DNA of 64,000 nt from positions 927,752 to 991,751 of the forward strand of contig OY970327.1 of assembly GCA_963717365.1 (NCBI GenBank). The letters are read 5' to 3'. Shown piece by piece: positions 3 through 60,873 of this stretch. A program made the position numbers and the translations under genes. The number at the start of each line of letters is the position of its first letter. The stretch's first letter is position 1. Under the pieces are notes generated by a model. That model saw only the letters and a list, made by a program, of their open reading frames with translations, was not told where the DNA came from and did no database searches. The stretch comes from Candidatus Saccharimonadia bacterium (lineage in GTDB: Bacteria > Patescibacteriota > Saccharimonadia > Saccharimonadales > 2-12-FULL-41-12).

Positions 3-1010
3 ACGCAAAATGTTTCTTTTTTGCTGGCGGTATTTTTACCGCCGGCGGCATTGGGCCTATTTTTGGCAATTCCTTGGAGTAGAGAACAGCCAACAGAGGT
101 TTGGGTGCTGGCCAAGTTACGATTCAAGATCAAACCGCGGTCACGCATTTGGGATCAGGCAGGGCTTGAAGAACTGGTAACAGTCACGGCACCTAAAAAG
201 ATTGAAGTGACACGGACGGACGGTCTCAATCAAGATGAGGTACAAAGTCGGCTCAAGGCACTGGCTGACACAATTGACACGCGCGGCTGGGCGACCAAAA
301 ATATTGGGCTGAATGACCGTATACCGGCTGATAATGACCGGTTGATTGCTCCTTCTATGATGCCTCGTGAGGTTCCAGAAATTGATCTTGAATCCTATGA
401 CGATGTTATGGATGCCGATACAACTGTGTCGGAGAATTTTGGCTATATGATGCAGTCCAGCAGCGATACGTTACGACGGGAATCACTTGAAAAGATGGAG
501 CGCGTACGCCGCGGTGAACCTGTTGATGCAGCCCAGCGGCCAGTAGTTAATTTTACGCCGCCAGTAGCTGACGGTAGCCCACAAAACGGTAGCAATAATT
601 CTGGCGATCAGCAGCTGAGCCAGCAGTTACGCAATAATCGTAGTGCTGGAGACCTTGTTAATAGCAATCTGCGAACTTTGCCAACTATCTCTTCTGGTAG
701 CTCGACGTCAGGCGGGGTTAATCATAATTATCTTAATCCGGCTCCGCCGGTGCAACCACCAGTCGTCCAGCCAGCCGTTACTGAAGATCCGGTAGCAGAC
801 GCTCCACCCGTCGACATGACAACAACCATAATTGACGATGACATAGACGACGTAACACCGGTTGAAGAACCACAAGCAGAAATGACAAGGGCCGCGAATC
901 CTGCTATACTTGAGCTTGCTCATAATAACGATTTAGACATCGCTACAATCGCCCGTCAGGCCAAGAGAGATGACCCGGACGAGAACGAGGTGGTCATCTC
1001 GCTTCGTTAA
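3..1010 (+). CDS. PrgI/VirB3-like small T4SS membrane protein, 5' partial (open to window edge)
   Basis: No in-frame stop upstream of nt 21, so the ORF probably starts before the window. Hydrophobic segment LLAVFLPPAALGLFLAIPW is followed by the basic stretch VLAKLRFKIKPRSR, then a long acidic/Pro-rich tail. It sits two genes upstream of VirB4, separated by the 1072..2037 ORF. Confidence 0.5.
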   Translation, partial: TQNVSFLLAVFLPPAALGLFLAIPWSREQPTEVWVLAKLRFKIKPRSRIWDQAGLEELVTVTAPKKIEVTRTDGLNQDEVQSRLKALADTIDTRGWATKNIGLNDRIPADNDRLIAPSMMPREVPEIDLESYDDVMDADTTVSENFGYMMQSSSDTLRRESLEKMERVRRGEPVDAAQRPVVNFTPPVADGSPQNGSNNSGDQQLSQQLRNNRSAGDLVNSNLRTLPTISSGSSTSGGVNHNYLNPAPPVQPPVVQPAVTEDPVADAPPVDMTTTIIDDDIDDVTPVEEPQAEMTRAANPAILELAHNNDLDIATIARQAKRDDPDENEVVISLR

Positions 1011-1071
1011 AGATAAACAGCATTTATACATTAATTTTGTCACAGAAGAACAGGTGGGAGCCGATTCGACG

Positions 1072-2037
1072 ATGAATCCAACCGATCAACAAAATCAGCC
1101 GCAGTACCAGCCAGCTCCTGGACCGCAGCTAGGGCAAGCACCAATTACCGGCGCTCAGGGGGCAGTGTATGTTGATCCTGGCCAACAGATGCAGGGTGCG
1201 ATGCCGGTAGACCCCCGGACCAATTTCATGCCGGCAATGCAACCGGGAGTAGTAGTACCCGGCGACCCCAACGCGCCTATCAGGATGCCTGGCGCTAAAC
1301 CGCCCGTTAACCCCAATAGCACTCAGAACAACCTGTTGATTGCCGAGATTCGGGACGGTATTGTGATTATGAATGATGGCTCCTTTCGGTCGGTTGTCAT
1401 GCTTAAATCAATTAACTTTGACTTAATGAGCCCATCGGAACGAGAAGGTGTTGAGTTTAGTTATCAAGGGTTCCTAAATTCACTATACTTTCCCCTCCAG
1501 ATCTTTATACGTTCCCAGAAGATCGATATCCGCCCATACATCGAACGGCTCGACAAAATCCGCAGCGAACACGACAACATGCTGCTGGCTCTACTGATGG
1601 ATGATTACATCGACTATATTGACCAACTGGCTTCACAAACAAATATTATGTCTAAGAATTTCTATATCGTTATACCATTCTTGCCAAAAAACGAAGCTAA
1701 TACTTCTTCAAAAAAATCCAGTAAAAATATGCTCGACGGTTTCTCAGGCTTATTCAATGGAGCTAAAACCCATGTGGTGATTGACGAAAAAAAGCTGGAA
1801 GAGGCCAAAGCCGAACTACGCAACCGCGTTCAGGCAGTTTTGAGCGGTCTAATGCAGTGCGGCGTCCAAGGATTACCGCTTGATACTCAAGAATTAATTG
1901 AGTTGTACTACGATACCTATAACCCAGATACTGCTACGCATCAACAGCTTAAGAATTTTAATGACCTGCAAGTACCGATTGTTACCAAGGGCGAAGGCCA
2001 GGCACCACAGCCAGGCTTAGAAAGACAGTTGCTGTAA
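1072..2037 (+). CDS. T4SS-associated protein of unknown function (Q/P-rich N-terminus, globular C-terminal domain)
   Basis: The track ORF 970..2037 overlaps the upstream gene, so the start was moved to the in-frame ATG at 1072 (MNPTDQQNQ...), preceded by GGTGGGAG. The stop overlaps the virB4 ATG (TAATG at 2035-2039). The pattern LLIAEIRDGIVIMNDGSFRSVVMLKSINFDLMSPSERE recalls the N-terminal non-ATPase region of VirB4/TraC-type proteins. Confidence 0.6.
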   Translation: MNPTDQQNQPQYQPAPGPQLGQAPITGAQGAVYVDPGQQMQGAMPVDPRTNFMPAMQPGVVVPGDPNAPIRMPGAKPPVNPNSTQNNLLIAEIRDGIVIMNDGSFRSVVMLKSINFDLMSPSEREGVEFSYQGFLNSLYFPLQIFIRSQKIDIRPYIERLDKIRSEHDNMLLALLMDDYIDYIDQLASQTNIMSKNFYIVIPFLPKNEANTSSKKSSKNMLDGFSGLFNGAKTHVVIDEKKLEEAKAELRNRVQAVLSGLMQCGVQGLPLDTQELIELYYDTYNPDTATHQQLKNFNDLQVPIVTKGEGQAPQPGLERQLL

Positions 2038-3953
2038 TGGCCTTTGGTAAAAAACAACCGCCACCAATGGATCCAATCGCGATTGCTCAGGCCCAAAGAG
2101 CCCGTGAAGAACAAGAAGTTGATATGGCCTTTAAAAAAGGCATTACGGCGCTGCGCGATTTTATTGCGCCTAGTTCAATCGAGTATCATAAAACCCACTT
2201 TCAGCTGGGAACCCGTTACGCGCGAACTTACTTTGTATATGGTTATCCGCGTCAGCTGACCACCGGCTGGATGAGCAGCATGGTAAACCTTGATGAAGTA
2301 CTTGATATCTCGTTGTTTATATATCCGGTAGAGAGCTTGGTGGTCCTTAACAACTTGCGCAAGAAGGTAGCCCAGCTTGAAGCTGGTATTCAAATAGATG
2401 CCGAGAAAGGCCGGGTGCGTGACCCTGCTAAGCAGTCGGCTATCCTTGACGCCGAGGAAATGCGTACAAAGCTGCAAGTTGGCGAGGAGCGTTTCTTCCG
2501 TTTTGGCTTTTATTTCACCCTTTACGGTGACACCATGGACGATCTTGAATTTGTCGCCAATAAGGTCGAGTCTATTCTTGGGCAGCAATTGGTATATTCC
2601 AAGCCAGCCAGCAGCCAACAAGAGCAGGCACTTAATAGTTCGGTGCCGCAGTTTATGGACCAACTACAGATTCGCCGCAACATGAACACCGGTGCTGTTA
2701 GCACTAGTTTCCCGTTCACCAGCGCTGACCTAAGCCAAGATAACGGCATATTATACGGCATCAATATGCATAACAGTGGCCTGGTAATTTTTGACCGTTT
2801 TACTCTGGAAAACGGCAATGCCGTGGTTTTTGCCAAGTCCGGTGCCGGTAAAAGCTTTGCCGTTAAGCTAGAAGCTCTGCGCAGCATGATGATGGGCACG
2901 GAAATCTTTATTATTGACCCGGAAAACGAATACCAGCGCATGTGCGAAGCAGTGGGCGGCGCCTATGTGCGGCTGAGCTTAAACTCAACCGTCCGGATTA
3001 ACCCATTTGATTTGCCGCAGGTAATTGACGTTGACGAGGCTGACAACGCGCTGCGAAGTAACCTCATCACCTTGCACGGCTTGTTACGCCTAATGATGGG
3101 CGGTGCAGCGGCGCAGATGTCTGGCGGTGGCGGCGTGATGGCTGGCGTCATGAGCCCAGCTGAAGAAGCCGACTTAGACGCCGCGCTTATTGAAACATAC
3201 GCCAAGGCTGGCATTACCAACGACCCGTTAACACACTCGTCTCTTCCCCCAACTATTACCGACTTATATGACACGCTCCTGCACATGGGTTCTGCCGGCC
3301 CTCAACTGGCTCAACGTCTGCGCAAATACACCAGCGGTACATTCGCCGGCATATTCTCTCAGCAGAGCAATATCGACATTAATAACCCAATGGTCGTGTT
3401 TAACATTCGGGATTTGGAGGATGAGCTTCGGCCTGTTGCTATGTTTATTGTCCTAAACTTTATCTGGAACAAGACAAAAAGCGACAAAAAGCGTCGTATA
3501 CTAATTGTTGACGAGGCGTGGCAGCTGATGAAATACGAAGACAGCGCCAATTTTATGTTTAGCTTGGCCAAGCGCGCTCGCAAGTATAATCTTGGTATTA
3601 GTACCATCACGCAAGACGTTGAGGATTTTATGGGTTCAAGAATGGGACGAGCGATTGTAGCCAACTCTTCCATGCAGATCCTGCTTAAGCAATCGACTTC
3701 GGCGGTAGACGTATTAGCCGACGTATTTAAATTGACCAGTGAAGAACGTAAACGTTTGAGCCAGTTCCCAGTAGGGCAGGGGCTTTTCTTTGCCGGTCAG
3801 AACCATGTACATATCCAAGTTACCGCCAGTGCCACCGAAAATAATCTGATAACCACTAACCCAGAGCAAGTAAAACAAATTGAACAAGCGGCCGCAATGA
3901 TGGCTGGGGAAGCTACGATTGACTTAAACAACCGTCTTTCACCAGGAATGTAG
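2037..3953 (+). CDS. virB4: VirB4/TrsE/PrgJ-family type IV secretion ATPase
   Basis: Walker A is VVFAKSGAGKSF and Walker B is RRILIVDEAWQLM. ISTITQDVEDF and SMQILLKQ motifs are typical of the VirB4 C-terminal ATPase domain. 638 aa. Confidence 0.9.
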   Translation: MAFGKKQPPPMDPIAIAQAQRAREEQEVDMAFKKGITALRDFIAPSSIEYHKTHFQLGTRYARTYFVYGYPRQLTTGWMSSMVNLDEVLDISLFIYPVESLVVLNNLRKKVAQLEAGIQIDAEKGRVRDPAKQSAILDAEEMRTKLQVGEERFFRFGFYFTLYGDTMDDLEFVANKVESILGQQLVYSKPASSQQEQALNSSVPQFMDQLQIRRNMNTGAVSTSFPFTSADLSQDNGILYGINMHNSGLVIFDRFTLENGNAVVFAKSGAGKSFAVKLEALRSMMMGTEIFIIDPENEYQRMCEAVGGAYVRLSLNSTVRINPFDLPQVIDVDEADNALRSNLITLHGLLRLMMGGAAAQMSGGGGVMAGVMSPAEEADLDAALIETYAKAGITNDPLTHSSLPPTITDLYDTLLHMGSAGPQLAQRLRKYTSGTFAGIFSQQSNIDINNPMVVFNIRDLEDELRPVAMFIVLNFIWNKTKSDKKRRILIVDEAWQLMKYEDSANFMFSLAKRARKYNLGISTITQDVEDFMGSRMGRAIVANSSMQILLKQSTSAVDVLADVFKLTSEERKRLSQFPVGQGLFFAGQNHVHIQVTASATENNLITTNPEQVKQIEQAAAMMAGEATIDLNNRLSPGM

Positions 3954-7513: not shown

Positions 7514-9424
7514 ATGATAATTTCTAAGTATTTCTTAAATCAAGTCGGAGTCACGTTAATCAGGCGTTTGCTAATTTTTGCTAGCGTGGTGATCTTTTTA
7601 CTAGCCAGTTCCGCTCCTTATGTTCAGGCGCAGGAAGAATTAAGCCCAGAGCAAATCAAACTGTACAATAAAAACATTTTCTATTTTGAAGATAAAGCTT
7701 GCGGCGCAGACGGCCAAACTTCTCCATCGGCTGCAAGCGGTCCGGTCACAGCAGGAACGGGCGAGCCAACAGGAACTACTTTCCCAAGTCTTTCTCCCGA
7801 CGCTATGGCCCAAGCTATTGATAAATATATCGAAGACACTAATCCAAGCAGCAAATTGTCAGGACTTGGCTCAACAATTGTTGCCAGCTCCAAAAACTCT
7901 AATATAAGTCCGTTCTTAATTGTTGCGATTGCCCAAAAGGAATCTGGCTTGGCAAACCCAAGCGACTTTAACGTCAGGAATGGAAATAATGCTTTTGGAC
8001 GCACCGCAACAACAAGTCAGCCTAATTTTCAGGGAGCACGGCTCTGGTATAAATGGACTTCCGTAAAAGCCAGTGTTGATCATACCGCAACAGAGAATAA
8101 AAATGCCACCGGAGGCGGAGATGTACCTTCCTATATAAGGAAACAGTATGCCTCAAACATAGACGCGGGTGACATGCGAGGCTTCTTTAATAAGTACGCG
8201 CCGGCTTTTGAAAACGATACCGCCAAATATATTACTGACGTCGGTAAGGGAATCGAAAAAATGGCGAGTCTGGCAGAAGCTTCCGCCGGCGGATCCGGCG
8301 CACCCCCTACTGCTCCGGCTGAACCAGCCGAGACAAGTCCGGCGGCGCCTACAGAACCAGCAGCTTCGACCCCGGGACTTTGCCAGTGCGTTGATATAAC
8401 TGGCGGAACATCCGGAGGAGGTTCCGGCGGCAGCGTATCGGTAGAGAAAAACGCCAAAACAATTTTTGACTTCTTTGTTGGCGAGGGTTATACGTCCGAG
8501 CAGGCTGCCGGATTTATTGGTAACTTTTATGCTGAGTCGGAGTTAGATCCGGGCAAAAAGCAAGAGGGTGGTGGCAATGGCTATGGACTTGCGCAGTGGG
8601 ATGACAGACGCGATGAGCTAGAAGCTTACGCTCAGCAGAAAAGTAAACCGGTTGACGATATTATGCTTCAGCTTGATTTCGCAAAGTTTGAACTTGATGG
8701 CACCGAAGGAGCCGCCAAGTCGGCTATCAAAGCAGTGACCGGATCCGGCATCCCAACAGTTGAAAACGTTACCGAAGTTATTATGCTGAAATACGAAAGA
8801 CCAGGCGTACAGAGACTAAGCGAAAGGATCGAAAAAGCTCTCGAATACTACGAGAAGTTTAAAGATAGTTCCAGCGCAGTTGAGGCCGCCAGCAACGCTA
8901 CGGTAAGTTCAGGTTCTGGATGCGGCGGCGGCGCGAGTGGTGGCGGCTCAGGTACCGGCGTTGCAAGCGGTACTTTTGCGTGGCCAATAGAGAAGGCAGT
9001 CGGACCGGTGACGAGTTGTTATGGTATGCGTAGGAGTCCTACTTCCGGAAATATGGCGCTACATACTGGACTTGATATTGCGGCGGCGGCCGGTACAAAA
9101 ATAGGTGCTTCAGATGGAGGAAAGGTAGTTCTAGCCCGCAACACTGACCCCGGTGGTTTTGGAAAAGCCGTTATCATTGAGCACGAAAATGGCAAATGGA
9201 CTCTGTATGGGCACATGAGAGTTGTAACGGTTGCGAAAGACGATAAAGTTGACCAGGGCCAAAAAATTGGAGAAGTAAATAATACCGGATCTTCTGCCGG
9301 AGATCATCTGCATTTTAATATTCAAACAGCGGCGGCCGAAGGAGAGGGGTCTGTTGATCCACTTGATTTCTTGCCTAAGGATGGCCGCGCAGTTAGCGGC
9401 TCAAATTGCCCGGCCTCCCTGTAA
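7514..9424 (+). CDS. Secreted three-module peptidoglycan hydrolase (N-terminal glycosidase-like module, phage-tail-lysozyme-like module, C-terminal M23 metallopeptidase)
   Basis: Signal/TM segment LIFASVVIFLLASSAPYVQA. Module 1 carries SPFLIVAIAQKESGLANP. Module 2 carries GFIGNFYAESELDPGKKQEGGGNGYGLAQWDDRR. M23 motifs are HTGLDIAA, GHM and GDHLHFNI. Modules are joined by P/A-rich and G/S-rich linkers. Confidence 0.8.
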   Translation: MIISKYFLNQVGVTLIRRLLIFASVVIFLLASSAPYVQAQEELSPEQIKLYNKNIFYFEDKACGADGQTSPSAASGPVTAGTGEPTGTTFPSLSPDAMAQAIDKYIEDTNPSSKLSGLGSTIVASSKNSNISPFLIVAIAQKESGLANPSDFNVRNGNNAFGRTATTSQPNFQGARLWYKWTSVKASVDHTATENKNATGGGDVPSYIRKQYASNIDAGDMRGFFNKYAPAFENDTAKYITDVGKGIEKMASLAEASAGGSGAPPTAPAEPAETSPAAPTEPAASTPGLCQCVDITGGTSGGGSGGSVSVEKNAKTIFDFFVGEGYTSEQAAGFIGNFYAESELDPGKKQEGGGNGYGLAQWDDRRDELEAYAQQKSKPVDDIMLQLDFAKFELDGTEGAAKSAIKAVTGSGIPTVENVTEVIMLKYERPGVQRLSERIEKALEYYEKFKDSSSAVEAASNATVSSGSGCGGGASGGGSGTGVASGTFAWPIEKAVGPVTSCYGMRRSPTSGNMALHTGLDIAAAAGTKIGASDGGKVVLARNTDPGGFGKAVIIEHENGKWTLYGHMRVVTVAKDDKVDQGQKIGEVNNTGSSAGDHLHFNIQTAAAEGEGSVDPLDFLPKDGRAVSGSNCPASL

Positions 9425-9448: not shown

Positions 9449-10987
9449 ATGCAAATAAAAAACCCAAGACGACTTATCAAGATTCTAGCAGGCCTAACGC
9501 TGCTTTTATTGCCGCTCTGGTTTTTATTAAACTATAGCTTTTTGACCATTACCGGCACCGATACGCAAAAGAAGGATGTCTATGTGGTAGGAGATAAATT
9601 TTATAAACAACTAGAGTTAACCAACAAATCAGAGTCTATGCTGATAAAACGCGGCTCGTATCGAATTGAGGTAAGTTCAGGTGATAAGTTATCCCTGTAC
9701 AACCGTAAATTTGGGGGTATGAGTAAAAATACAGTAAACATAGAGCTGTCCGATCAAAAATCTTCACAGTATCTGGGCTCAAGTCCGCTGCCGTGCGCAC
9801 AACAGGCTGCCGAAAACACTTCGATTTTTTACTCTTGTGGTAACGACGTACTTGGTATTATTGCAAACGACAAAGCAAATGCAGCCACTCCGCCTGACGC
9901 AAATCCTTCCGGACCTATATCAACGGTGATTAAAAACTATAACGACGACTTTTTGGAAGCAAAACTTTCAAACAACAAACTCGAGATACGAGCCAAGAAT
10001 GATTCAGGCTATTTAGCCGCTAAAGGCGCCGTTGTGATCAATGATTTCCAGGGAGAAATAACAGATAGTTATCTTGGAGTTTCACAGGATTCGGATAATT
10101 TTGCCGTATTTGATACTCGAAGTAAAAAATTACATGTTTATAAGGGCCTGGCTGATAAAAACCCAGTTATCCATGAATTGAATGATAAACAAGTTGATAT
10201 GCTAGCTTATTCTACGGCTGTTATCACCGGCAAGAATTTCACTTATTTAATGAATTACGGGGTGGTGTCAGACGAAGTTGATGTTGGCAGCACTGTTGAT
10301 AATGGCGAAAGCGAATATACTTCTTCCAACATTAAACCTCGTGTTCTGGTTTATAGTCATCAAGAAAATAAACTAAAAACCGAACATATACTGCCGATTA
10401 AATGGCAGATCCGAAGTCTAGCTGAGGGCCCTGGAGATCAGGTTGTATTTTTCTTAAGCGGCAATTTAAATAATGAGGCATACCGCATAGCAGCTGGACA
10501 AAAACCGGAGCAGTTAGCGATCCCGACGGAAGTTCCGCAGGAAGCTTGCTGGAAAAATAGTGATTCATTCTATTATCTTTCTGACGCGGGAACGAAGATA
10601 TATCACTATTCGCAATCAAAGCAGGCCGCTTTCTTGGTCTATGGAAATCTTATGGAAGGCACAATAATTCGCGGCTTACATTGCGCGCAAGGGAAAGTAT
10701 CTTTCTCGATTGGAAATGACAAAGACGGCGACACGATAAATCATTATCACTATACATTAGGCGAAGCTGCTCATTCTTTAGTCAGAATAGAGTCTATCTT
10801 ACCAATTTATTTTGATAGCGGTCCAAAGACCTATAAAGCTGTTACTGATAAGGCGGGCGTAAAAGTACAACTTATTGGCAGTGGCGGCGCCGTTCCCAAT
10901 GAAGTCAGAGATGGCATACGTAGCTTGGTTTTAGAAAGGCTGGAAGCTAAGGGCGCTAGCCCAGCCAATATTAACATAGTTTTTTAG
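9449..10987 (+). CDS. Membrane-anchored extracytoplasmic protein, unknown function (last gene of T4SS-like cluster)
   Basis: N-terminal TM helix ILAGLTLLLLPLWFLLNY. 512-aa ORF, co-directional with the cluster. No motif recognised. Confidence 0.55.
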   Translation: MQIKNPRRLIKILAGLTLLLLPLWFLLNYSFLTITGTDTQKKDVYVVGDKFYKQLELTNKSESMLIKRGSYRIEVSSGDKLSLYNRKFGGMSKNTVNIELSDQKSSQYLGSSPLPCAQQAAENTSIFYSCGNDVLGIIANDKANAATPPDANPSGPISTVIKNYNDDFLEAKLSNNKLEIRAKNDSGYLAAKGAVVINDFQGEITDSYLGVSQDSDNFAVFDTRSKKLHVYKGLADKNPVIHELNDKQVDMLAYSTAVITGKNFTYLMNYGVVSDEVDVGSTVDNGESEYTSSNIKPRVLVYSHQENKLKTEHILPIKWQIRSLAEGPGDQVVFFLSGNLNNEAYRIAAGQKPEQLAIPTEVPQEACWKNSDSFYYLSDAGTKIYHYSQSKQAAFLVYGNLMEGTIIRGLHCAQGKVSFSIGNDKDGDTINHYHYTLGEAAHSLVRIESILPIYFDSGPKTYKAVTDKAGVKVQLIGSGGAVPNEVRDGIRSLVLERLEAKGASPANINIVF

Positions 10988-54349: not shown

Positions 54350-54748
54350 TTATTTTACCAACTGCACAAGCTTAGGTAATTTGGCGGCCAGTTTTTTATC
54401 GTAAGTGAGTAACGGAAGATCATTATTAAGTTCGGCATAAACTGCTAGGCAAACATCTACAAAAGATAGCGTTGGATGGGCGACATACAGGGGAACAGCT
54501 TTTTGCAACATAGCCCGGTTGCAGTTAATTTGTGGAAGGCCCACCAATGTCTCGATATTAGCAGCAATAGCATCTCGGCTTTGGGCGTGGGCTGGTCCTT
54601 GCAGAATCCAGACTACCTCTGCAAAAACATAGTCAGCTACCGCAAATTCTTGCCCTGACTGCGCAATAAGCTGCTCGATCTGGCTGGACTGGGCAGGAAC
54701 ATCTCCTAGCAAGAGACGTAAAACAATATTTGTATCAAGACTTTTCAT
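54350..54748 (-). CDS. vapC: PIN-domain toxin (VapC-like)
   Basis: LDTNIVLRLLLGD supplies the first Asp. Later motifs are FAEVVWIL and SFVDVCLAVYAE. It overlaps the antitoxin stop by 1 nt. Confidence 0.8.
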   Translation of the reverse strand: MKSLDTNIVLRLLLGDVPAQSSQIEQLIAQSGQEFAVADYVFAEVVWILQGPAHAQSRDAIAANIETLVGLPQINCNRAMLQKAVPLYVAHPTLSFVDVCLAVYAELNNDLPLLTYDKKLAAKLPKLVQLVK

Positions 54749-55038
54749 TACCTAAGGCTGTTCTGATATTTTTCCAGGGCTGCTTGTTCTGCTGCTTGGT
54801 TGATTGCATCATCCAACTCTTCGTCGGACATAGGTTTTATGTTATTTTTTCGCATATGGGCTTGATTTTTGGCTTGGATTTTACGCAGATCAGATAACCA
54901 ATCTATTTTCTCTATAATTACTTTGTTGCCCTGCATATTAATAGATAGCCGTTCACCCGGCTTAATGCCAAGTTTTTTACGAAACGGAGCAGGCAAAGTC
55001 ATTTGGCCTTTGCTGGTAACTTTTGTTTGATAGGTCAT
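54748..55038 (-). CDS. vapB: AbrB/SpoVT-MazE-fold antitoxin (VapB-like)
   Basis: KVTSKGQMTLPAPFRKKLGIKPGERLSI is the classic swapped-hairpin AbrB-type DNA-binding motif. 96 aa. Confidence 0.8.
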   Translation of the reverse strand: MTYQTKVTSKGQMTLPAPFRKKLGIKPGERLSINMQGNKVIIEKIDWLSDLRKIQAKNQAHMRKNNIKPMSDEELDDAINQAAEQAALEKYQNSLR

Positions 55039-56776: not shown

Positions 56777-57286
56777 ATGGCGCAAAAAACAAAGAAACCT
56801 AAAAAAACCGAACTACGGCGTTTCACCGAATATATGATAAGCGGTGGCGCCTATTTCTGGTCAGGCTATCTGGTATTTTTCTTTATTGATAAGGGCTTGG
56901 GTATGACCTTTTTCTGGGCCAAGTCAATTTCTACTCTGGTGGGCTGGAGCGTTAACTATGCCTTGCAGCGTTACTGGGTATTTAAAAATCCAGAACTCGC
57001 TAAGCACAAAACCCAGGTTACCAGCCGCTACACTTTCATCACGCTGGTCAACTTTGTGCTCGATTATCTTATTGTCTTTGGCCTTAAAACCATCGGCATA
57101 ACCCCATACATTGGCCAATTTATCTCTTCGGCGTTCTTTACCGTCTGGAACTACCTTTGGTACAAATATTGGGTATTCCCTGACAAATTTGATAAAAAGA
57201 AAACTAAGCGGGTCAAACAGACCCCAGCGCATGTATTGGCTCATCATGCCCACGGCCACACTGCTTACCGAGTACACCCAAAATGA
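56777..57286 (+). CDS. gtrA: GtrA-family membrane protein (polyprenol-linked sugar translocation family)
   Basis: Four TM helices. YMISGGAYFWSGYLVFFFI, NYALQRYWVFK and VWNYLWYKYWVF are typical GtrA-like repeats. Extended basic/His-rich C-terminus. Confidence 0.75.
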   Translation: MAQKTKKPKKTELRRFTEYMISGGAYFWSGYLVFFFIDKGLGMTFFWAKSISTLVGWSVNYALQRYWVFKNPELAKHKTQVTSRYTFITLVNFVLDYLIVFGLKTIGITPYIGQFISSAFFTVWNYLWYKYWVFPDKFDKKKTKRVKQTPAHVLAHHAHGHTAYRVHPK

Positions 57287-57741
57287 GCACGGTTGTCCGC
57301 CCAACCAAAAAACAGCGCGAGCTGCTGACCTTCCTTGATGAATTTATCACCCAGCACGGCTACAGCCCCAGTTACCGCGAAATCATGTCCGGATGCAGCT
57401 ATACGTCTGTGGCTACCGTCGCCTTGCACGTTAACAGCTTGATTAAGCGCGGCCACCTTCGTAAAAAAGACCGCTCGGCTCGTTCGTTAGAAGTTATCAA
57501 AGAAACCGAAACGGCAGATCTTGCAAAAATACAAACCACCGCCTTAAAAGCCAGCGAAGAAAAATGGTTGGTAGAGAAAATCGATTATAAATTTAGACAG
57601 TGTGAAGACTCATCTCAGCCAAGTGAAGCTGACATCGATGGATTGTATGTATTGGTCGGTGCTCTAAAAGTATTGCAGCTGGAGGGCGCGGCCAGCTCGT
57701 TTATGCCACGGCTGAGCGAACTGAAAAAACAATTTAAATAA
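57283..57741 (+). CDS. LexA-N-terminal-domain-like winged-helix DNA-binding protein lacking the S24 peptidase domain
   Basis: TKKQRELLTFLDEFITQHGYSPSYREIMSG...SVATVALHVNSLIKRGHLRK matches the LexA DNA-binding domain. The remaining ~80 aa show no Ala-Gly cleavage site or Ser/Lys dyad. ATGA overlap with gtrA. Confidence 0.7.
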   Translation: MSTVVRPTKKQRELLTFLDEFITQHGYSPSYREIMSGCSYTSVATVALHVNSLIKRGHLRKKDRSARSLEVIKETETADLAKIQTTALKASEEKWLVEKIDYKFRQCEDSSQPSEADIDGLYVLVGALKVLQLEGAASSFMPRLSELKKQFK

Positions 57742-57880: not shown

Positions 57881-57910
57881 TTGACAAAAAATCTCTAATG
57901 TTGCTATCAT
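57881..57910 (+). promoter_or_regulatory. Sigma70-like promoter of candidate sRNA
   Basis: TTGACA (57881-57886), an 18-nt spacer, then TATCAT (57905-57910). A second TTGACA-16-TATAAG lies at 57773-57800. Confidence 0.45.
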
Positions 57911-57916
57911 AGTAGT

Positions 57917-58025
57917 CCTGTGTCAAACAGGAATATTTAGATAGCCGCGTTAAACCGGCTAAGACTCAAACGAAAGTTTGAATCGCAACTGTAGCAAAAA
58001 AGCACCCGTAAAAAGGTGCTTTTTT
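57917..58025 (+). ncRNA. Candidate ~110-nt small RNA bounded by promoter and intrinsic terminator
   Basis: Three local hairpins: CCTGT-gtcaa-ACAGG, GCCG-cgttaaac-CGGC, and GACTCAAAC-GAAA-GTTTGAATC with a GNRA loop. These are followed by the terminator AGCACC-cgtaaaaa-GGTGCT + TTTTTT. No ORF and no + strand gene downstream. Confidence 0.4.
57996..58025. terminator. Bidirectional intrinsic terminator
   Basis: AAAAA-AGCACC-cgtaaaaa-GGTGCT-TTTTT gives an A-run and a T-run flanking a 6-bp GC-rich stem. It can serve the + strand sRNA candidate and the - strand 40-aa ORF. Confidence 0.7.
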
Positions 58026-58066
58026 GTTGAGTTGTTTATAACGGTTAACAGCCCGTCTTAAATTAA

Positions 58067-58189
58067 CTACTTTCTACGACGAATTGTCTCGGTCTGCGTG
58101 ATCTTGGGGCTTGTAACTGCTTTACGCGGTTCTACAAAGCGACCAGTGATAGAGCTACGCACTACCTTGATAGGTTTTGAATTAGCCAT
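58067..58189 (-). CDS. 40-aa basic small protein (not in ORF track)
   Basis: Hand translation gives MANSKPIKVVRSSITGRFVEPRKAVTSPKITQTETIRRRK. A strong SD AGGAG lies 7 nt upstream of the ATG, and the bidirectional terminator follows. It resembles a widespread family of tiny ...SGRFV...TT.TET... proteins (recalled from memory, unverified). Confidence 0.55.
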   Translation of the reverse strand: MANSKPIKVVRSSITGRFVEPRKAVTSPKITQTETIRRRK

Positions 58190-58262
58190 GCTAATACTCC
58201 TGCCTGATTAAGCCATGCTTGATATTAAAAGAGAGAGCCGCATGTGTGGCTTACCAATCTTT

Positions 58263-58379
58263 TGGCGGCGGGAGAGGGATTCGAACCCTCGACGCGTATT
58301 TGAATTGCAACTGTAATTGTTCATCGTTTCACGTATCTGTTTTGGAGACAGGCACATTAAACCACTCTGTCATCCCGCC
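58263..58379 (-). tRNA. Atypical 117-nt tRNA-like gene (class-II/Ser-like body, anticodon loop CUCCAAA = CCA, 45-nt variable region, encoded CCA end)
   Basis: Acceptor GGCGGGA/UCCCGCC, discriminator G, 3' CCA. D arm ACA-GAGUGGUUUAA-UGU. Anticodon arm CCUGU-CUCCAAA-ACAGA (4 bp + C:A). T arm GAGGG-UUCGAAU-CCCUC. 45 nt (UACGUG...UACGCGUC) lie between the anticodon stem and the T stem. Confidence 0.6.
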
Positions 58380-58431
58380 ACTTTGGTGTTATTTTCTGTT
58401 AATTCATTTTGATTTCTCAATAATTTCAGAA

Positions 58432-58536
58432 CAAAAAAGAAGTTCACACCAGCCTCGGAGTGTAGGTGCCGGTTAGGCTTCTACGCTTTGGAGCGTTGGT
58501 ACTTCTACCTACTACTCCAAGCTGCTATGAACTTCT
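58432..58536 (-). terminator. 99-nt extended hairpin followed by U6 on the minus strand (terminator or 3' end of a structured RNA)
   Basis: On the minus strand, AGAAGUUCA (58536-58528) pairs with UGAACUUCU (58446-58438). Inner helix CAGCUUGGAGUAGUAGGU/CACCUACACUCCGAGGCUG. Apical ACGCU-ccaa-AGCGU. U-run at 58437-58432. Confidence 0.5.
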
Positions 58537-58704: not shown

Positions 58705-60873
58705 TCAACCAATCTGAACCAACTGATTGTGCCTAACCGCGTCCATAATTACTATTTCGCCCATGGCAGGTGTAATGTTTATAAAGCTGCGCCACGGATT
58801 AGTGATGGAAACTACTCTAGACGTAGGCAAATCAAGTGATGATAGGCCGCGGGCGCCTTCGATAGCCTTGAGCCAGGCAAGCGGTGTTTTGCCAAAGCGA
58901 CCCTCTTCGCTAGCGGAGCCGTCCATGCGCCATTTGGCGTAGGTTGTGCTTACTTGAGCTTTATCGGAGTCAGAAAGTACCACCCGAGCCGCGCCAGCAT
59001 TCTCCATGGTCTCTAGTGCGTATGTCGGGCTGTCAATACCAGGAGCAATCACTACTGAGTAAACTTTTTCTATGCTGCCATGTTCTTCTAGTCTCGCAAG
59101 GCCGGAGAGCACGGCAATATCCTGGTCGGGGGAAGTAGTAACTCCATCATTTGGGTTATTATCACTGCGGTAGAGCGAATCGCCGCCCGTATCTACGCCA
59201 ACTACAATTTCCGCGTTTACCATGTCCGCCAGTTCGCGAATATTTTGCTGCACGACCTCCGGATCGGTACTGGTAAGAATGAATATCCGGTTGTTCTCAC
59301 TGCCGTCCTCAAATGGAATAGCTTCTAAGAAACGCCAGTCGCTGGCAGCTTCTGTTTCTTTAGTTATCTCAACCAGCGCGCTGCTTACGCGTTCGCCCGG
59401 ATTAGTAAGAGGTTTCTCGCCGTTTCTGACAGAGACAATCGCGCTTGTTTTGCTGCCATACTTTTCTTCAAATATCTTGCTCAGCATTGCTGCCTGTAAT
59501 CCGTCAGAACCGCCGCCCATGCCCACAAACAGTACGCGCTTGTCGTGTAAGCCGGTATAACCTTCAAACATAGGCAAGCTGTTTAGGTTATCCAGGCTTT
59601 GTTTTTGAATTTCTGGAACAAACATATTGCCATGGCGGTTAAATCGTATAATTGCATCTTCTAGCTTGAGCGTGCCTTGGTTTAATGCACGCGTAAGATC
59701 GCCAAGTTCAGCGGTAACTACGCCTGTTTTTCCATTTCTACGAGCATCAATATCTGCAATATGTGCTTCTTGTAGAATATGGGCAAAGTAGGTTAAAGCA
59801 GTTTCCATTTGGTGTTGTTCCGATAGGGCTTTTAGCAAGGCCGGTCCGTAGTAGGGCAACGTAGCGCGGTCATCAATGCCGGTTTTATTAAGTTCAGTGG
59901 TCAGGATAGTTTTAACCGCTAGAGCCAAATTATCGTAGGCTTCTTTTAACGGCTCAAATTGTTCTGGTGATGCGTAACGGAGCATACAACCTAAGCGTAC
60001 TTGGGCTTTAGCTTCAGCGATTTGGTCTGTTCCCAATTCTTGGGTATTAACTCCAAGTTGTTGTGCTCGGTATTCAAGGTAGGTGTTGTAGCGTTCGGTT
60101 GCGCCGCTCAACTCAGTGCTAGAAAGTGCCGCGGTGGCCCGGGACATGCTCATATAGGTGGGAAAGGTAAGAACAATAGAGCTGTCAGGGTTTACGTGCC
60201 CAACCACGCCGGCTAAATCCAGCATGGCATGCATAACGTACATGCTTCGGGTTTTTTCCTCTAGATCTTCTGGTATTGCTTCAAGACTAGCCGCCGGTCC
60301 TTCGGTTTGTAGGAACTGCGCATAGTTTAGGCGGATGCCAAATATTCTTTGGATAAGCTTCTGTTCTTCTTCCGGGAATTTGCCATAACTTGGCAAGAGA
60401 CTTTCCTGCTGTGCGGCATACTGCGAATTTCCTAGTAAGCTGGTAAGAACTTCATCATGGTCAACTTCTTTAGGATCAATACCCATTTCATCAAATACAC
60501 GTCCGCTTTTGCCAATATCATGGATAAGCATAATATATTGCATGGTTTCAAAGCTTTGATGTTCGTCAAGGGTTTCAGTAAACCAGTTATTAAGCTCGTC
60601 AAACTGCTCGCGGGTGAGACGTACTGCTTCATTTTGTACTTCTGTGAGAGCCGCATAATTTTCATCTCCGCCTTCGTATAGGTAACGCAAGCAATTCAGC
60701 GAGCACTGGGTACGCTTTTTCTCGGCGTCAAGGTCAAATTGCCCGGATGCTGCTTCAGGGGTGGCGGCCACATCATATCCGCTTAATAGTTGCCATTCAG
60801 GCAGGGAGTCTATATCAAACTGTGGGTTCGCGGCTGAGTTATGAGGAGGTGAATAAGAGTTGGCTTGCTTCAT
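58705..60873 (-). CDS. Two-domain protein of unknown function: N-terminal HD-motif-containing helical domain + C-terminal DUF1152-like domain
   Basis: HD-like motif is IMLIHDIGKSG, with a later YVMHAMLDLAGVVGH. The C-terminal half has VLFVGMGGGSDGLQAA and IVVGVDTGGDSL, the paired GGG(S/G)D / D-x-GGD motifs I associate with DUF1152 (from memory). 722 aa. Confidence 0.55.
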   Translation of the reverse strand: MKQANSYSPPHNSAANPQFDIDSLPEWQLLSGYDVAATPEAASGQFDLDAEKKRTQCSLNCLRYLYEGGDENYAALTEVQNEAVRLTREQFDELNNWFTETLDEHQSFETMQYIMLIHDIGKSGRVFDEMGIDPKEVDHDEVLTSLLGNSQYAAQQESLLPSYGKFPEEEQKLIQRIFGIRLNYAQFLQTEGPAASLEAIPEDLEEKTRSMYVMHAMLDLAGVVGHVNPDSSIVLTFPTYMSMSRATAALSSTELSGATERYNTYLEYRAQQLGVNTQELGTDQIAEAKAQVRLGCMLRYASPEQFEPLKEAYDNLALAVKTILTTELNKTGIDDRATLPYYGPALLKALSEQHQMETALTYFAHILQEAHIADIDARRNGKTGVVTAELGDLTRALNQGTLKLEDAIIRFNRHGNMFVPEIQKQSLDNLNSLPMFEGYTGLHDKRVLFVGMGGGSDGLQAAMLSKIFEEKYGSKTSAIVSVRNGEKPLTNPGERVSSALVEITKETEAASDWRFLEAIPFEDGSENNRIFILTSTDPEVVQQNIRELADMVNAEIVVGVDTGGDSLYRSDNNPNDGVTTSPDQDIAVLSGLARLEEHGSIEKVYSVVIAPGIDSPTYALETMENAGAARVVLSDSDKAQVSTTYAKWRMDGSASEEGRFGKTPLAWLKAIEGARGLSSLDLPTSRVVSITNPWRSFINITPAMGEIVIMDAVRHNQLVQIG

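Follow-up and report, generated by a model that had tools for sequence, protein, structure and literature searches.

A serine-type transfer RNA with a tryptophan anticodon and a convergent small RNA matching its variable arm look like a co-evolving pair in Saccharimonadales-type bacteria

Introduction

A 64,000-nucleotide stretch of contig OY970327.1 from a Candidatus Saccharimonadia bacterium (GenBank assembly GCA_963717365.1, positions 927,752 to 991,751; hereafter the window, with its first letter as position 1) contains a transfer RNA (tRNA) gene that combines the body of a serine tRNA, the anticodon of a tryptophan tRNA and a variable region of 45 nucleotides (nt). The locus raises the question of what such a tRNA may do and why its arm is so long. 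A sequence-only reading had placed a 117-nt tRNA-like gene here, at coordinates that we confirm, and had considered an insertion or intron, a novel long-arm tRNA and a tRNA-derived regulatory RNA as explanations. The last two options pointed in the right direction; absent from that reading were the strand, which is minus, the cassette that surrounds the gene and an adjacent small RNA (sRNA) gene that matches the arm.

Here we describe the tRNA and its cassette, which we are highly confident are real. The tRNA and the sRNA look like a co-evolving pair of tRNA and antisense RNA of a kind not described before, and their sequences suggest that the sRNA probably pairs with the arm and controls the tRNA.

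Results

The locus encodes an intact class-II tRNA

The gene and its parts are located as follows:

58263..58379, minus strand (read from 58379 to 58263): class-II tRNA gene of 117 nt including the encoded CCA, with a Ser-type body, anticodon CCA and G73
58343..58345, minus strand: anticodon CCA, within the loop CUCCAAA (58341-58347)
58291..58335, minus strand: variable region of 45 nt between A43 and G49, with a basal stem of 5 base pairs (bp), ACGUG/CGCGU, and an A/U-rich tip

The Rfam tRNA model RF00005 recognised the gene with 52.3 bits (gathering score 29; E = 2e-8 for the whole window) in an alignment that spans the full model, positions 1-71, and this was the sole Rfam match in the 64-kilobase (kb) window. 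ARAGORN, by contrast, called neither a tRNA nor a transfer-messenger RNA (tmRNA) in the window. When the variable arm was trimmed in silico to 16 nt, the same program called a tRNA-Trp(cca), supporting that the miss is purely a limit on arm length. 

The cloverleaf details that had been read from the letters were confirmed by the Rfam alignment. They comprise the acceptor stem GGCGGGA/UCCCGCC, the discriminator G73 and the encoded CCA, the T arm GAGGG-UUCGAAU-CCCUC, a D stem of 3 bp (A10-U25, C11-G24 and A12-U23) followed by the G13.A22 non-pair and a 9-nt D loop, and the anticodon loop CUCCAAA on a 5-bp stem with a C27.A43 mismatch. G18G19, U33, A37 and the T loop are also intact. With a variable region longer than 10 nt that has its own stem, a 3-bp D stem and a non-pair at 13:22, the locus encodes an intact class-II tRNA. 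The gap between the anticodon and T stems is indeed 45 nt (58335-58291), compared to 13-22 nt in ordinary class-II tRNAs. From the fold earlier drawn for it the basal stem stands, with 5 bp, whereas the inner hairpin is marginal: above the basal stem the arm is weakly structured, with -4.8 kcal/mol for the 45 nt folded alone.

Homologues keep the cloverleaf through compensatory changes

Four homologues were found by pattern scans and look-ups in Saccharimonadales-type contigs and metagenomes:

L074/L152: metagenome-assembled genome of Candidatus Saccharimonadales, anticodon CCA, variable region of ~50 nt
L125: metagenome, anticodon CCA, variable region of ~48 nt
L130: metagenome, anticodon CCA, variable region of 31 nt
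L149: Logan contig, reached through an 80%-identical homologue of the 40-amino-acid open reading frame (ORF) described below, anticodon GUA, variable region of ~42 nt

A contig scan with CTCCAAA...GGGTTCGAATCCC returned mostly tandem tRNA pairs (a ...CGCTCCA end followed by AA), and one true relative, L074, was present among the matches listed from it. The homologues score 45-58 bits with the Rfam tRNA model, and none was called by ARAGORN. When the five sequences were aligned, 97% of the pair cells were standard pairs, and changes on both sides that preserve pairing were detected in 11 of the 20 pairs. In 500 shuffles the observed values for paired fraction, covariation and both-side changes were never attained, and sliding the pairing partners abolished the covariation signal. 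The acceptor/T branch has 7 + 5 bp in every one of the five. The cloverleaf is therefore maintained among the homologues, and the gene is not a pseudogene, an option that the sequence-only reading had kept for the case of degenerate relatives.

The comparison between the window tRNA and that of L149 is informative for the anticodon. Their acceptor stems are identical and G73 is shared, the D, anticodon and T stems differ by compensatory changes, and L149 has GUA instead of CCA, so that the anticodon varies on a body that is otherwise shared.

The tip of the variable arm is complementary to a convergent sRNA

The tRNA belongs to a cassette that, in the orientation of the tRNA, consists of a long hairpin, the tRNA, an ORF for a basic protein of 38-41 amino acids, a bidirectional terminator and a convergent sRNA gene of ~115 nt. 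Three complete cassettes (window, L149 and L152/L074) and two partial ones were found, L163 with the ORF and sRNA only and L125 with the hairpin and tRNA only. In the alignment of the window with L149 the homology extends well beyond the tRNA, and L152 has the same layout. The parts involved in the match to the arm are:

57881..57910, plus strand: sRNA promoter TTGACA-N18-TGcTATCAT, 11/12 consensus positions, with extended -10
57916..58031, plus strand: predicted sRNA of ~115 nt, with three hairpins, an unpaired seed and a terminator
57977..57993, plus strand: sRNA seed UUUGAAUCGCAACUGUA, complementary to the variable-arm tip of the tRNA
57992..58029, both strands: bidirectional intrinsic terminator, common to the tRNA-ORF unit and the convergent sRNA
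58299..58315, minus strand: docking segment UACAGUUGCAAUUCAAA at the variable-arm tip, 16/17 complementary to the sRNA seed

On the DNA, segments 58299-58315 and 57977-57993 form a 16/17 direct repeat, so that an sRNA made from the plus strand is complementary to the tRNA made from the minus strand. The same holds for the three complete cassettes, in each of which the arm tip has 14-19 nt of complementarity to a stretch of the sRNA just 5' of the terminator. The matching sequence differs from genome to genome, yet it is matched within each:

Window, arm in tRNA sense: UACAGUUGCAAUUCAAA, match 16/17
L149, arm in tRNA sense: UUUAGCUUCCAUUGCGAUU, match 18/19
L152, arm in tRNA sense: GCUCGGUAAGCAUU, match 14/14

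Whole-molecule RNAduplex calculations were uninformative because they allow huge internal loops, and ungapped and seed-restricted tests were used instead. Ungapped complementarity was 14, 16 and 14 for the cognate pairs of the window, L149 and L152, against 5-11 for non-cognate pairs and a mean of 6.6 for shuffled sequences, none of which (0/1000) reached the observed values. Duplexes between seed and arm gave -21.9, -28.5 and -25.7 kcal/mol for the same cognate pairs and -4 to -16 kcal/mol for non-cognate ones, again with no shuffle (0/2000) reaching the cognate energies. The sRNA bodies of the window and L149 are ~90% identical, and yet the seeds differ by a 4-base block, to which the arm changes to match. 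The seed of L163 differs again from those of the other cassettes. The match falls on the poorly paired arm tip in the tRNA and on an unpaired stretch in the sRNA, and in the 64-kb window the seed has no further site beyond the arm tip and the sRNA itself. The match to the extra portion of the arm most plausibly accounts for its unusual length.

Several features support the sRNA as a gene of its own. A promoter of the form TTGACA-N16-18-TGnTAYYRT stands at the same place in the window, L149, L152 and L163, with diverged spacers, and the bidirectional terminator is conserved in the last three as well. The window sRNA folds with -43.5 kcal/mol (z = -6.95) into hairpins at 57916-57932, 57942-57961 and 57963-57984, the last one capped by a tetraloop that has the sequence GAAA on the plus strand only. 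The four sRNA homologues fold independently to the same shape of three hairpins, seed and terminator (z = -5.2 to -6.9), with compensatory changes in hairpins 2 and 3 and an unpaired stretch of 10-14 nt between hairpin 3 and the terminator. From these features we infer that the plus-strand sRNA is expressed. It matches no Rfam family above chance (E<=5), and a scan of viral contigs with its motif gave 0 matches.

A serine-type body with a tryptophan anticodon

In order to know which amino acid the tRNA body points to, its 5' 32 nt and 3' 25 nt, a choice that excludes the anticodon loop and the arm, were compared with a reference set of 639 tRNAs that ARAGORN had called in the fetched loci, among them 43 Ser, 48 Leu, 19 Tyr and 14 Trp. 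For each of the five homologues the top 10-12 neighbours were all tRNA-Ser, with best scores of 33-38 for Ser and 20-25 for Tyr. The window tRNA scored 37 with Ser and 24 with Tyr. Trp reached 18 for L125; for the remaining four, including the window, it did not rank among the eight best isotypes. These data bear out the Ser-like class-II body with a Trp anticodon that had been read from the sequence.

At the level of single elements, the window tRNA has G1-C72, G2-C71, C11-G24, G73 and a long variable arm, whose stem is flanked by one unpaired base on each side. Recognition elements of seryl-tRNA synthetase (SerRS), an enzyme that ignores anticodons, include the pairs G1-C72, G2-C71 and C11-G24 and a variable stem with a single unpaired base on either side. 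The long variable arm together with G73 has also been described as a SerRS element (PMC5389517). The anticodon is not one of the Ser anticodons (NGA or GCU), being CCA in the window and GUA in L149, each one middle-base change away from the Ser anticodons CGA and GGA. Compared with a bacterial tRNA-Trp, CCA and G73 are present and a class-I, Trp-related body is not. The body is thus Ser-type by these comparisons and the anticodon is that of Trp (CCA), and the combination with G73 leaves the Ser/Trp identity ambiguous.

Other classes of RNA were considered and rejected. The resemblance of the anticodon loop to that of tRNA-Sec, pointed out in the sequence-only reading, does not extend to the rest of the molecule, since tRNA-Sec has an 8/5 branch, a 6-bp D stem with a 4-nt loop and the anticodon UCA, and the window tRNA has a 7/5 branch, a 3-bp D stem with a 9-nt loop and CCA. 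Against a tmRNA stand the lack of an ARAGORN call, the pair C3-G70 in place of G3.U70 and a normal anticodon arm; against a two-piece tmRNA, an sRNA without a convincing tag reading frame. The 8/4 or 9/3 geometry of allo-tRNAs does not fit the 7 + 5 bp branch of the five homologues.

Other parts of the cassette

The remaining parts of the window cassette are:

58430..58536, minus strand: long hairpin, branched at its apex, with arms at 58438-58467 and 58507-58536 and a U tract behind it, directly upstream of the tRNA
58208..58216, minus strand: two-codon mini-ORF AUG-GCU-UAA, within a duplicated copy of the small-ORF start region (58178-58219, direct repeat)
58067..58189, minus strand: 40-amino-acid basic ORF MANSKPIKVVRSSITGRFVEPRKAVTSPKITQTETIRRRK, with an AGGAG Shine-Dalgarno sequence, 73 nt downstream of the tRNA

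The upstream hairpin, ~110 nt with a fold of -55 to -58 kcal/mol, is homologous in L149 (~20-130) and L152 (~9500-9610, minus strand), its closing helix covaries, and an analogous hairpin precedes the tRNA in L125 (220-285). It has no Rfam family at E<=5, and a T-box leader was rejected for lack of an Rfam match. It could be a terminator or attenuator, a leader RNA, an RNase III site or a separate RNA.

The product of the 40-amino-acid ORF, strongly basic, hydrophilic and devoid of hydrophobic stretches, may bind RNA. It has homologues downstream of the tRNA in L149 and L152 and in the partial cassette of L163. A wider family, in which 64 clusters were counted at E<1e-3 and which carries the motif RSxxTGRFVxxxxAxxxPKTTxTE, comprises widespread and unnamed basic proteins of 33-50 amino acids (P0165-P0227), some with two repeats, and is matched by no Pfam, NCBIfam or PHROG model. 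None of its members L160, L161 and L162 has a class-II tRNA. In L160 the small ORF is bracketed by a 24-nt inverted repeat (23/24), and in L161 it follows a large structured leader. The mini-ORF lies 15 nt upstream of the real start of the small ORF; AUG-CCU-UAA is found at the same place in L149 and none in L152, and its belonging to the cassette is uncertain.

Genomic context and related tRNAs

Three neighbouring features of the window were recorded:

58705-60873, minus strand: 722-amino-acid protein with DUF6829 and DUF1152, upstream of the tRNA
57283-57741, plus strand: 152-amino-acid protein with a LexA DNA-binding domain and no LexA protease domain, ending 140 nt before the sRNA promoter
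54350-55038, minus strand: MazE/AbrB-type antitoxin gene paired with a VapC-like PIN-domain gene, at a distance of 3 kb from the cassette

For the proteins encoded nearby, the best relatives come from records of 'Candidatus Saccharimonas/Saccharimonadales' and 'Patescibacteria group', and the window also has dnaA-dnaN-recF, rnpA-yidC and many cell-envelope sugar genes. The 722-amino-acid protein is conserved (43-64% identity) in many Saccharimonadales-type contigs, unlinked to the cassette: when synteny was followed through this gene, four homologous loci (50-64% identity) were found, none with such a tRNA. The best PHROG matches of the 152-amino-acid protein are phage repressor-like families, and it is not encoded in the L149 flank. 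Prophage-like and restriction-modification genes neighbour the L152 cassette, an IS1595 transposase is found at 3 kb from it, and homologues of the ParB-methylase next to it are abundant in Saccharimonadales without linkage to the cassette. L125 has an IS1595 transposase directly upstream. Genes of this family were located at 390-1253 (minus strand) in L125, 5299-6198 in L152 and 1216-1998 in L161, and the window has none. A blastn search of the cassette against phages and plasmids gave no match. By these comparisons the cassette is conserved and non-syntenic in Saccharimonadales-type bacteria, and because of the lack of synteny and of the IS1595, restriction-modification and prophage-like genes nearby, it looks like an accessory or mobile element rather than a housekeeping tRNA locus. 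L152 also carries a LOOT RNA (Rfam RF03000, 73 bits) at 8670-8793 (minus strand), ~250 nt beyond the sRNA promoter, a family with no match in the window.

Some related tRNAs were met elsewhere. The L130 homologue (1632-1735, plus strand) is a lone Ser-type tRNA(CCA) with a well-paired arm, also missed by ARAGORN until the arm is shortened; a gene with a SWIM-zinc-finger-like motif lies downstream, and neither the small ORF nor the sRNA is present. Phage contigs L144 (5122-5221, minus strand), L151 (~9313-9420, plus strand) and L150 (~2190-2290, minus strand) carry class-II tRNAs with the anticodons CCA/UAU/UGG, the one with CCA in an array of at least 14 tRNA genes and the one of L151 with a Ser-like acceptor stem and G73, so that long-armed tRNAs with unexpected anticodons are not confined to the cassette. 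In L126 (~10488-10560, minus strand) and L129 (1388-1491 and 2092-2344) what looks like an integration scar, the isolated 3' half of a tRNA with its T arm and acceptor strand, lies behind an ordinary tRNA-Trp; L129 has a permuted tmRNA (88.6 bits) as well. A pattern scan surfaced by chance an element of Collinsella (L005, 486-559, minus strand; L117, ~246-320, minus strand), with a tRNA-like 3' end (GGGTTCGAATCCCTCCTCC...) after a long hairpin containing CTCCAAAG.

Discussion

We know of no natural tRNA controlled by RNA pairing to its body. A related case in E. coli is 3'ETS-leuZ, a sponge derived from a tRNA precursor that pairs with global sRNAs through a discarded spacer. Pairing of a tRNA transcript with an sRNA would be common to both, whereas here the pairing would lie inside the mature tRNA body and the partner would be private. 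Our searches of the open literature turned up no account, for Saccharibacteria/Patescibacteria, of tRNAs with such long arms or of an sRNA pairing with a tRNA. RNA-antitoxin systems, both type I (tisB/istR-1, zor/orz) and the RNA-RNA type VIII, likewise have an adjacent small RNA gene with a short, specific and diverging match. By its sequence the cassette has such an adjacent complementary RNA gene and lacks the hydrophobic peptide of type I systems; the predicted partner of its sRNA is a tRNA body and not an mRNA leader or a toxic sRNA.

Among tRNAs, bacterial tRNA-Ser shares the acceptor, D-arm and T-arm architecture, G73, C11-G24 and a variable stem that starts one base after the anticodon stem, and differs in the anticodon (CCA is one base from CGA) and in the length of the variable region. 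Bacterial tRNA-Trp shares the CUCCAAA loop and G73, but it is class I, with a 4-5-nt variable loop, a 4-bp D stem and low similarity in the body. The nearest natural analogue, as far as this comparison goes, is the allo-tRNAs, bacterial molecules that also combine Ser identity elements (long variable arm and G73) with non-Ser anticodons and are missed by ordinary finders (PMC5389517). Their genes often neighbour toxin-antitoxin or mobile genes; the tRNAs are able to place Ser at sense codons, and E. coli suffers from their toxicity (PMC5389517). They differ in having an 8/4 or 9/3 branch, a long anticodon stem and a Sec-like D arm in place of the 7/5 branch, 5-bp stem and tRNA-Ser D arm found here; the arm of the cassette tRNA is about twice as long as theirs, and it has a dedicated complementary sRNA, of which none is reported for allo-tRNAs. 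Nematode nev-tRNAs (PMC3333845) are also class II with anticodons outside Ser/Leu, but they are eukaryotic, of Leu type, with variable arms of ordinary length and no partner RNA. In engineered tRNAs the tip of the variable arm was swapped for a ligand-binding hairpin, giving active tRNAs that are sequestered by a tight binder, and the variable arm is the handle of SerRS (PMC7590224). Docking at the arm tip, sequestration and the arm as the handle of SerRS would be common to both cases, the engineered ones being synthetic with a protein partner and the cassette natural with a putative RNA partner. The extra length of the arm appears to exist to carry the docking site of the sRNA.

How the pair might work can be outlined as follows. 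We tentatively favour, as possible rather than probable, an accessory Ser-type missense tRNA that is restrained by its own antisense sRNA, with a toxin-antitoxin-like logic. The plus-strand sRNA would be made and would dock on the arm tip of the tRNA or of its precursor. With an RNA of ~115 nt on the arm that SerRS reads, the tRNA would be left uncharged, barred from the ribosome or cleaved, and by any of these routes the sRNA would keep it out of translation. Free tRNA would most likely be charged with Ser, because SerRS does not read the anticodon and the GUA sister has the same acceptor stem and G73, possibly also by tryptophanyl-tRNA synthetase (TrpRS) through CCA and G73, and it would read UGG as Ser. 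In such a module the tRNA would be the stable effector, the sRNA its dedicated antisense neutraliser and the docking site a fast-evolving patch that sets specificity. The missense, toxin-antitoxin-like reading is suggested by the Ser-type body, the G73 kept despite a Tyr anticodon, the variable anticodon, the mobile context and the fast-evolving seed. A more specific form of it, which we regard as unlikely, would be an all-RNA toxin-antitoxin or defence module made of a stable, Ser-charged missense tRNA (reading UGG, or UAY in the sisters, as Ser to the detriment of the proteome) and a labile private antisense sRNA docked on its enlarged variable arm, in which rapid evolution of the docking patch would keep paralogous cassettes from cross-talk.

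A number of points weigh against a restrained missense tRNA. The cassettes are few, and because two of the CCA homologues came from CCA-specific patterns, the sample does not fix the anticodon spectrum. The lone tRNA of L130 indicates that this type of tRNA exists outside the cassette, and the wider small-ORF family occurs without any tRNA. The arms of the window and L149 are irregular above the 5-bp basal stem, which might weaken the binding of SerRS; in allo-tRNAs a bulge in the variable stem abolishes charging with Ser (PMC7590224). If the genome had no canonical tRNA-Trp, the cassette tRNA must insert Trp. This last point leads to the rival that the gene is a genuine, possibly the sole, tRNA-Trp, recruited from a tRNA-Ser gene and charged by TrpRS, with the sRNA tuning its level or maturation and the GUA sister as a recruited tRNA-Tyr. 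The CUCCAAA loop and G73 match bacterial tRNA-Trp, CCA and G73 being the main determinants of bacterial TrpRS (PMC5370408); CCA is found in four of the five homologues, the cloverleaf, G18G19, T loop and encoded CCA are intact, and ARAGORN finds no canonical tRNA in the 64-kb window. On the other side, the body is of Ser and not of Trp type, and two of the CCA homologues came from the CCA-specific patterns. A non-syntenic cassette in variable regions would be unusual for an essential single-copy tRNA, the fast-changing seed is unexpected for housekeeping regulation, and the GUA sister keeps G73, whereas Tyr tRNAs normally have A73. We consider this recruitment improbable.

The small ORF suggests another reading, in which the tRNA shape is a 5' processing or stability element of the ORF transcript, RNase P/Z frees the mRNA, and the sRNA, acting like a type I antitoxin, controls the 40-amino-acid protein. 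The tRNA and ORF are indeed co-oriented and 73 nt apart with no evident terminator between them, the adjacent sRNA with its 14-19-nt match to a structured upstream region recalls the tisB/istR-1 and zor/orz loci, and other members of the ORF family lie behind structured RNAs or between long-range complementary sequences. RNase P, however, needs the acceptor/T minihelix only, and yet the D arm, anticodon stem, U33, A37 and G18G19 are all kept, with compensatory changes; the protein is basic and hydrophilic, unlike known type I toxins, and its family exists without tRNAs, which makes this reading quite unlikely. Very unlikely, in our view, is that the match between arm and sRNA is a relic in the DNA, left by an attachment-site or target-site duplication or by gene conversion, with a non-functional 'sRNA' and a class-II tRNA carrying an insertion. 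The copies are direct repeats 322-325 bp apart, of the sort that tRNA-targeting integrative elements leave. Nevertheless, the repeat differs in the three genomes and is matched within each with homologous flanks. The acceptor stem pairs across the border of the putative insert, its 3' strand on the inside covarying with the 5' strand on the outside. Behind the second copy there is no remnant of a tRNA 3' end, a gene-conversion tract of 14-19 nt would be very short, and the promoter, GAAA tetraloop and hairpin covariation point to an expressed plus-strand RNA. Finally, an intron-containing tRNA-Trp whose insert is removed, as the sequence-only reading had allowed, or a decaying pseudogene, could be suspected from 45 nt where most tRNAs have 4-5 nt and from the C27.A43 mismatch. 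The long arm is nevertheless kept (31-50 nt) together with the class-II D arm in every homologue, no intron family, group I introns included, matches at Rfam E<=5, the stems are all maintained by compensatory changes in the four relatives, and the insert, which lies in the variable region and is kept as an arm, itself carries the conserved sRNA match, so that we give this reading hardly any weight.

The pair touches on deliberate mistranslation, RNA-only toxin-antitoxin systems and the evolution of shifts in tRNA identity, and synthetic biology could draw on it as a natural blueprint for orthogonal tRNAs that are switched by RNA. As ARAGORN misses all these genes, it could leave gaps in the tRNA inventories of Patescibacteria that rely on it. 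If the gene were a real tRNA-Trp, it would be a clear case of cross-class recruitment, with a Ser body decoding Trp. If the all-RNA module were true, it would be the first natural tRNA regulated by base pairing at the variable arm and the first tRNA toxin, and if the tRNA is charged by SerRS, a reduced and host-dependent bacterium would possess a natural, switchable source of Trp-to-Ser (or Tyr-to-Ser) mistranslation.

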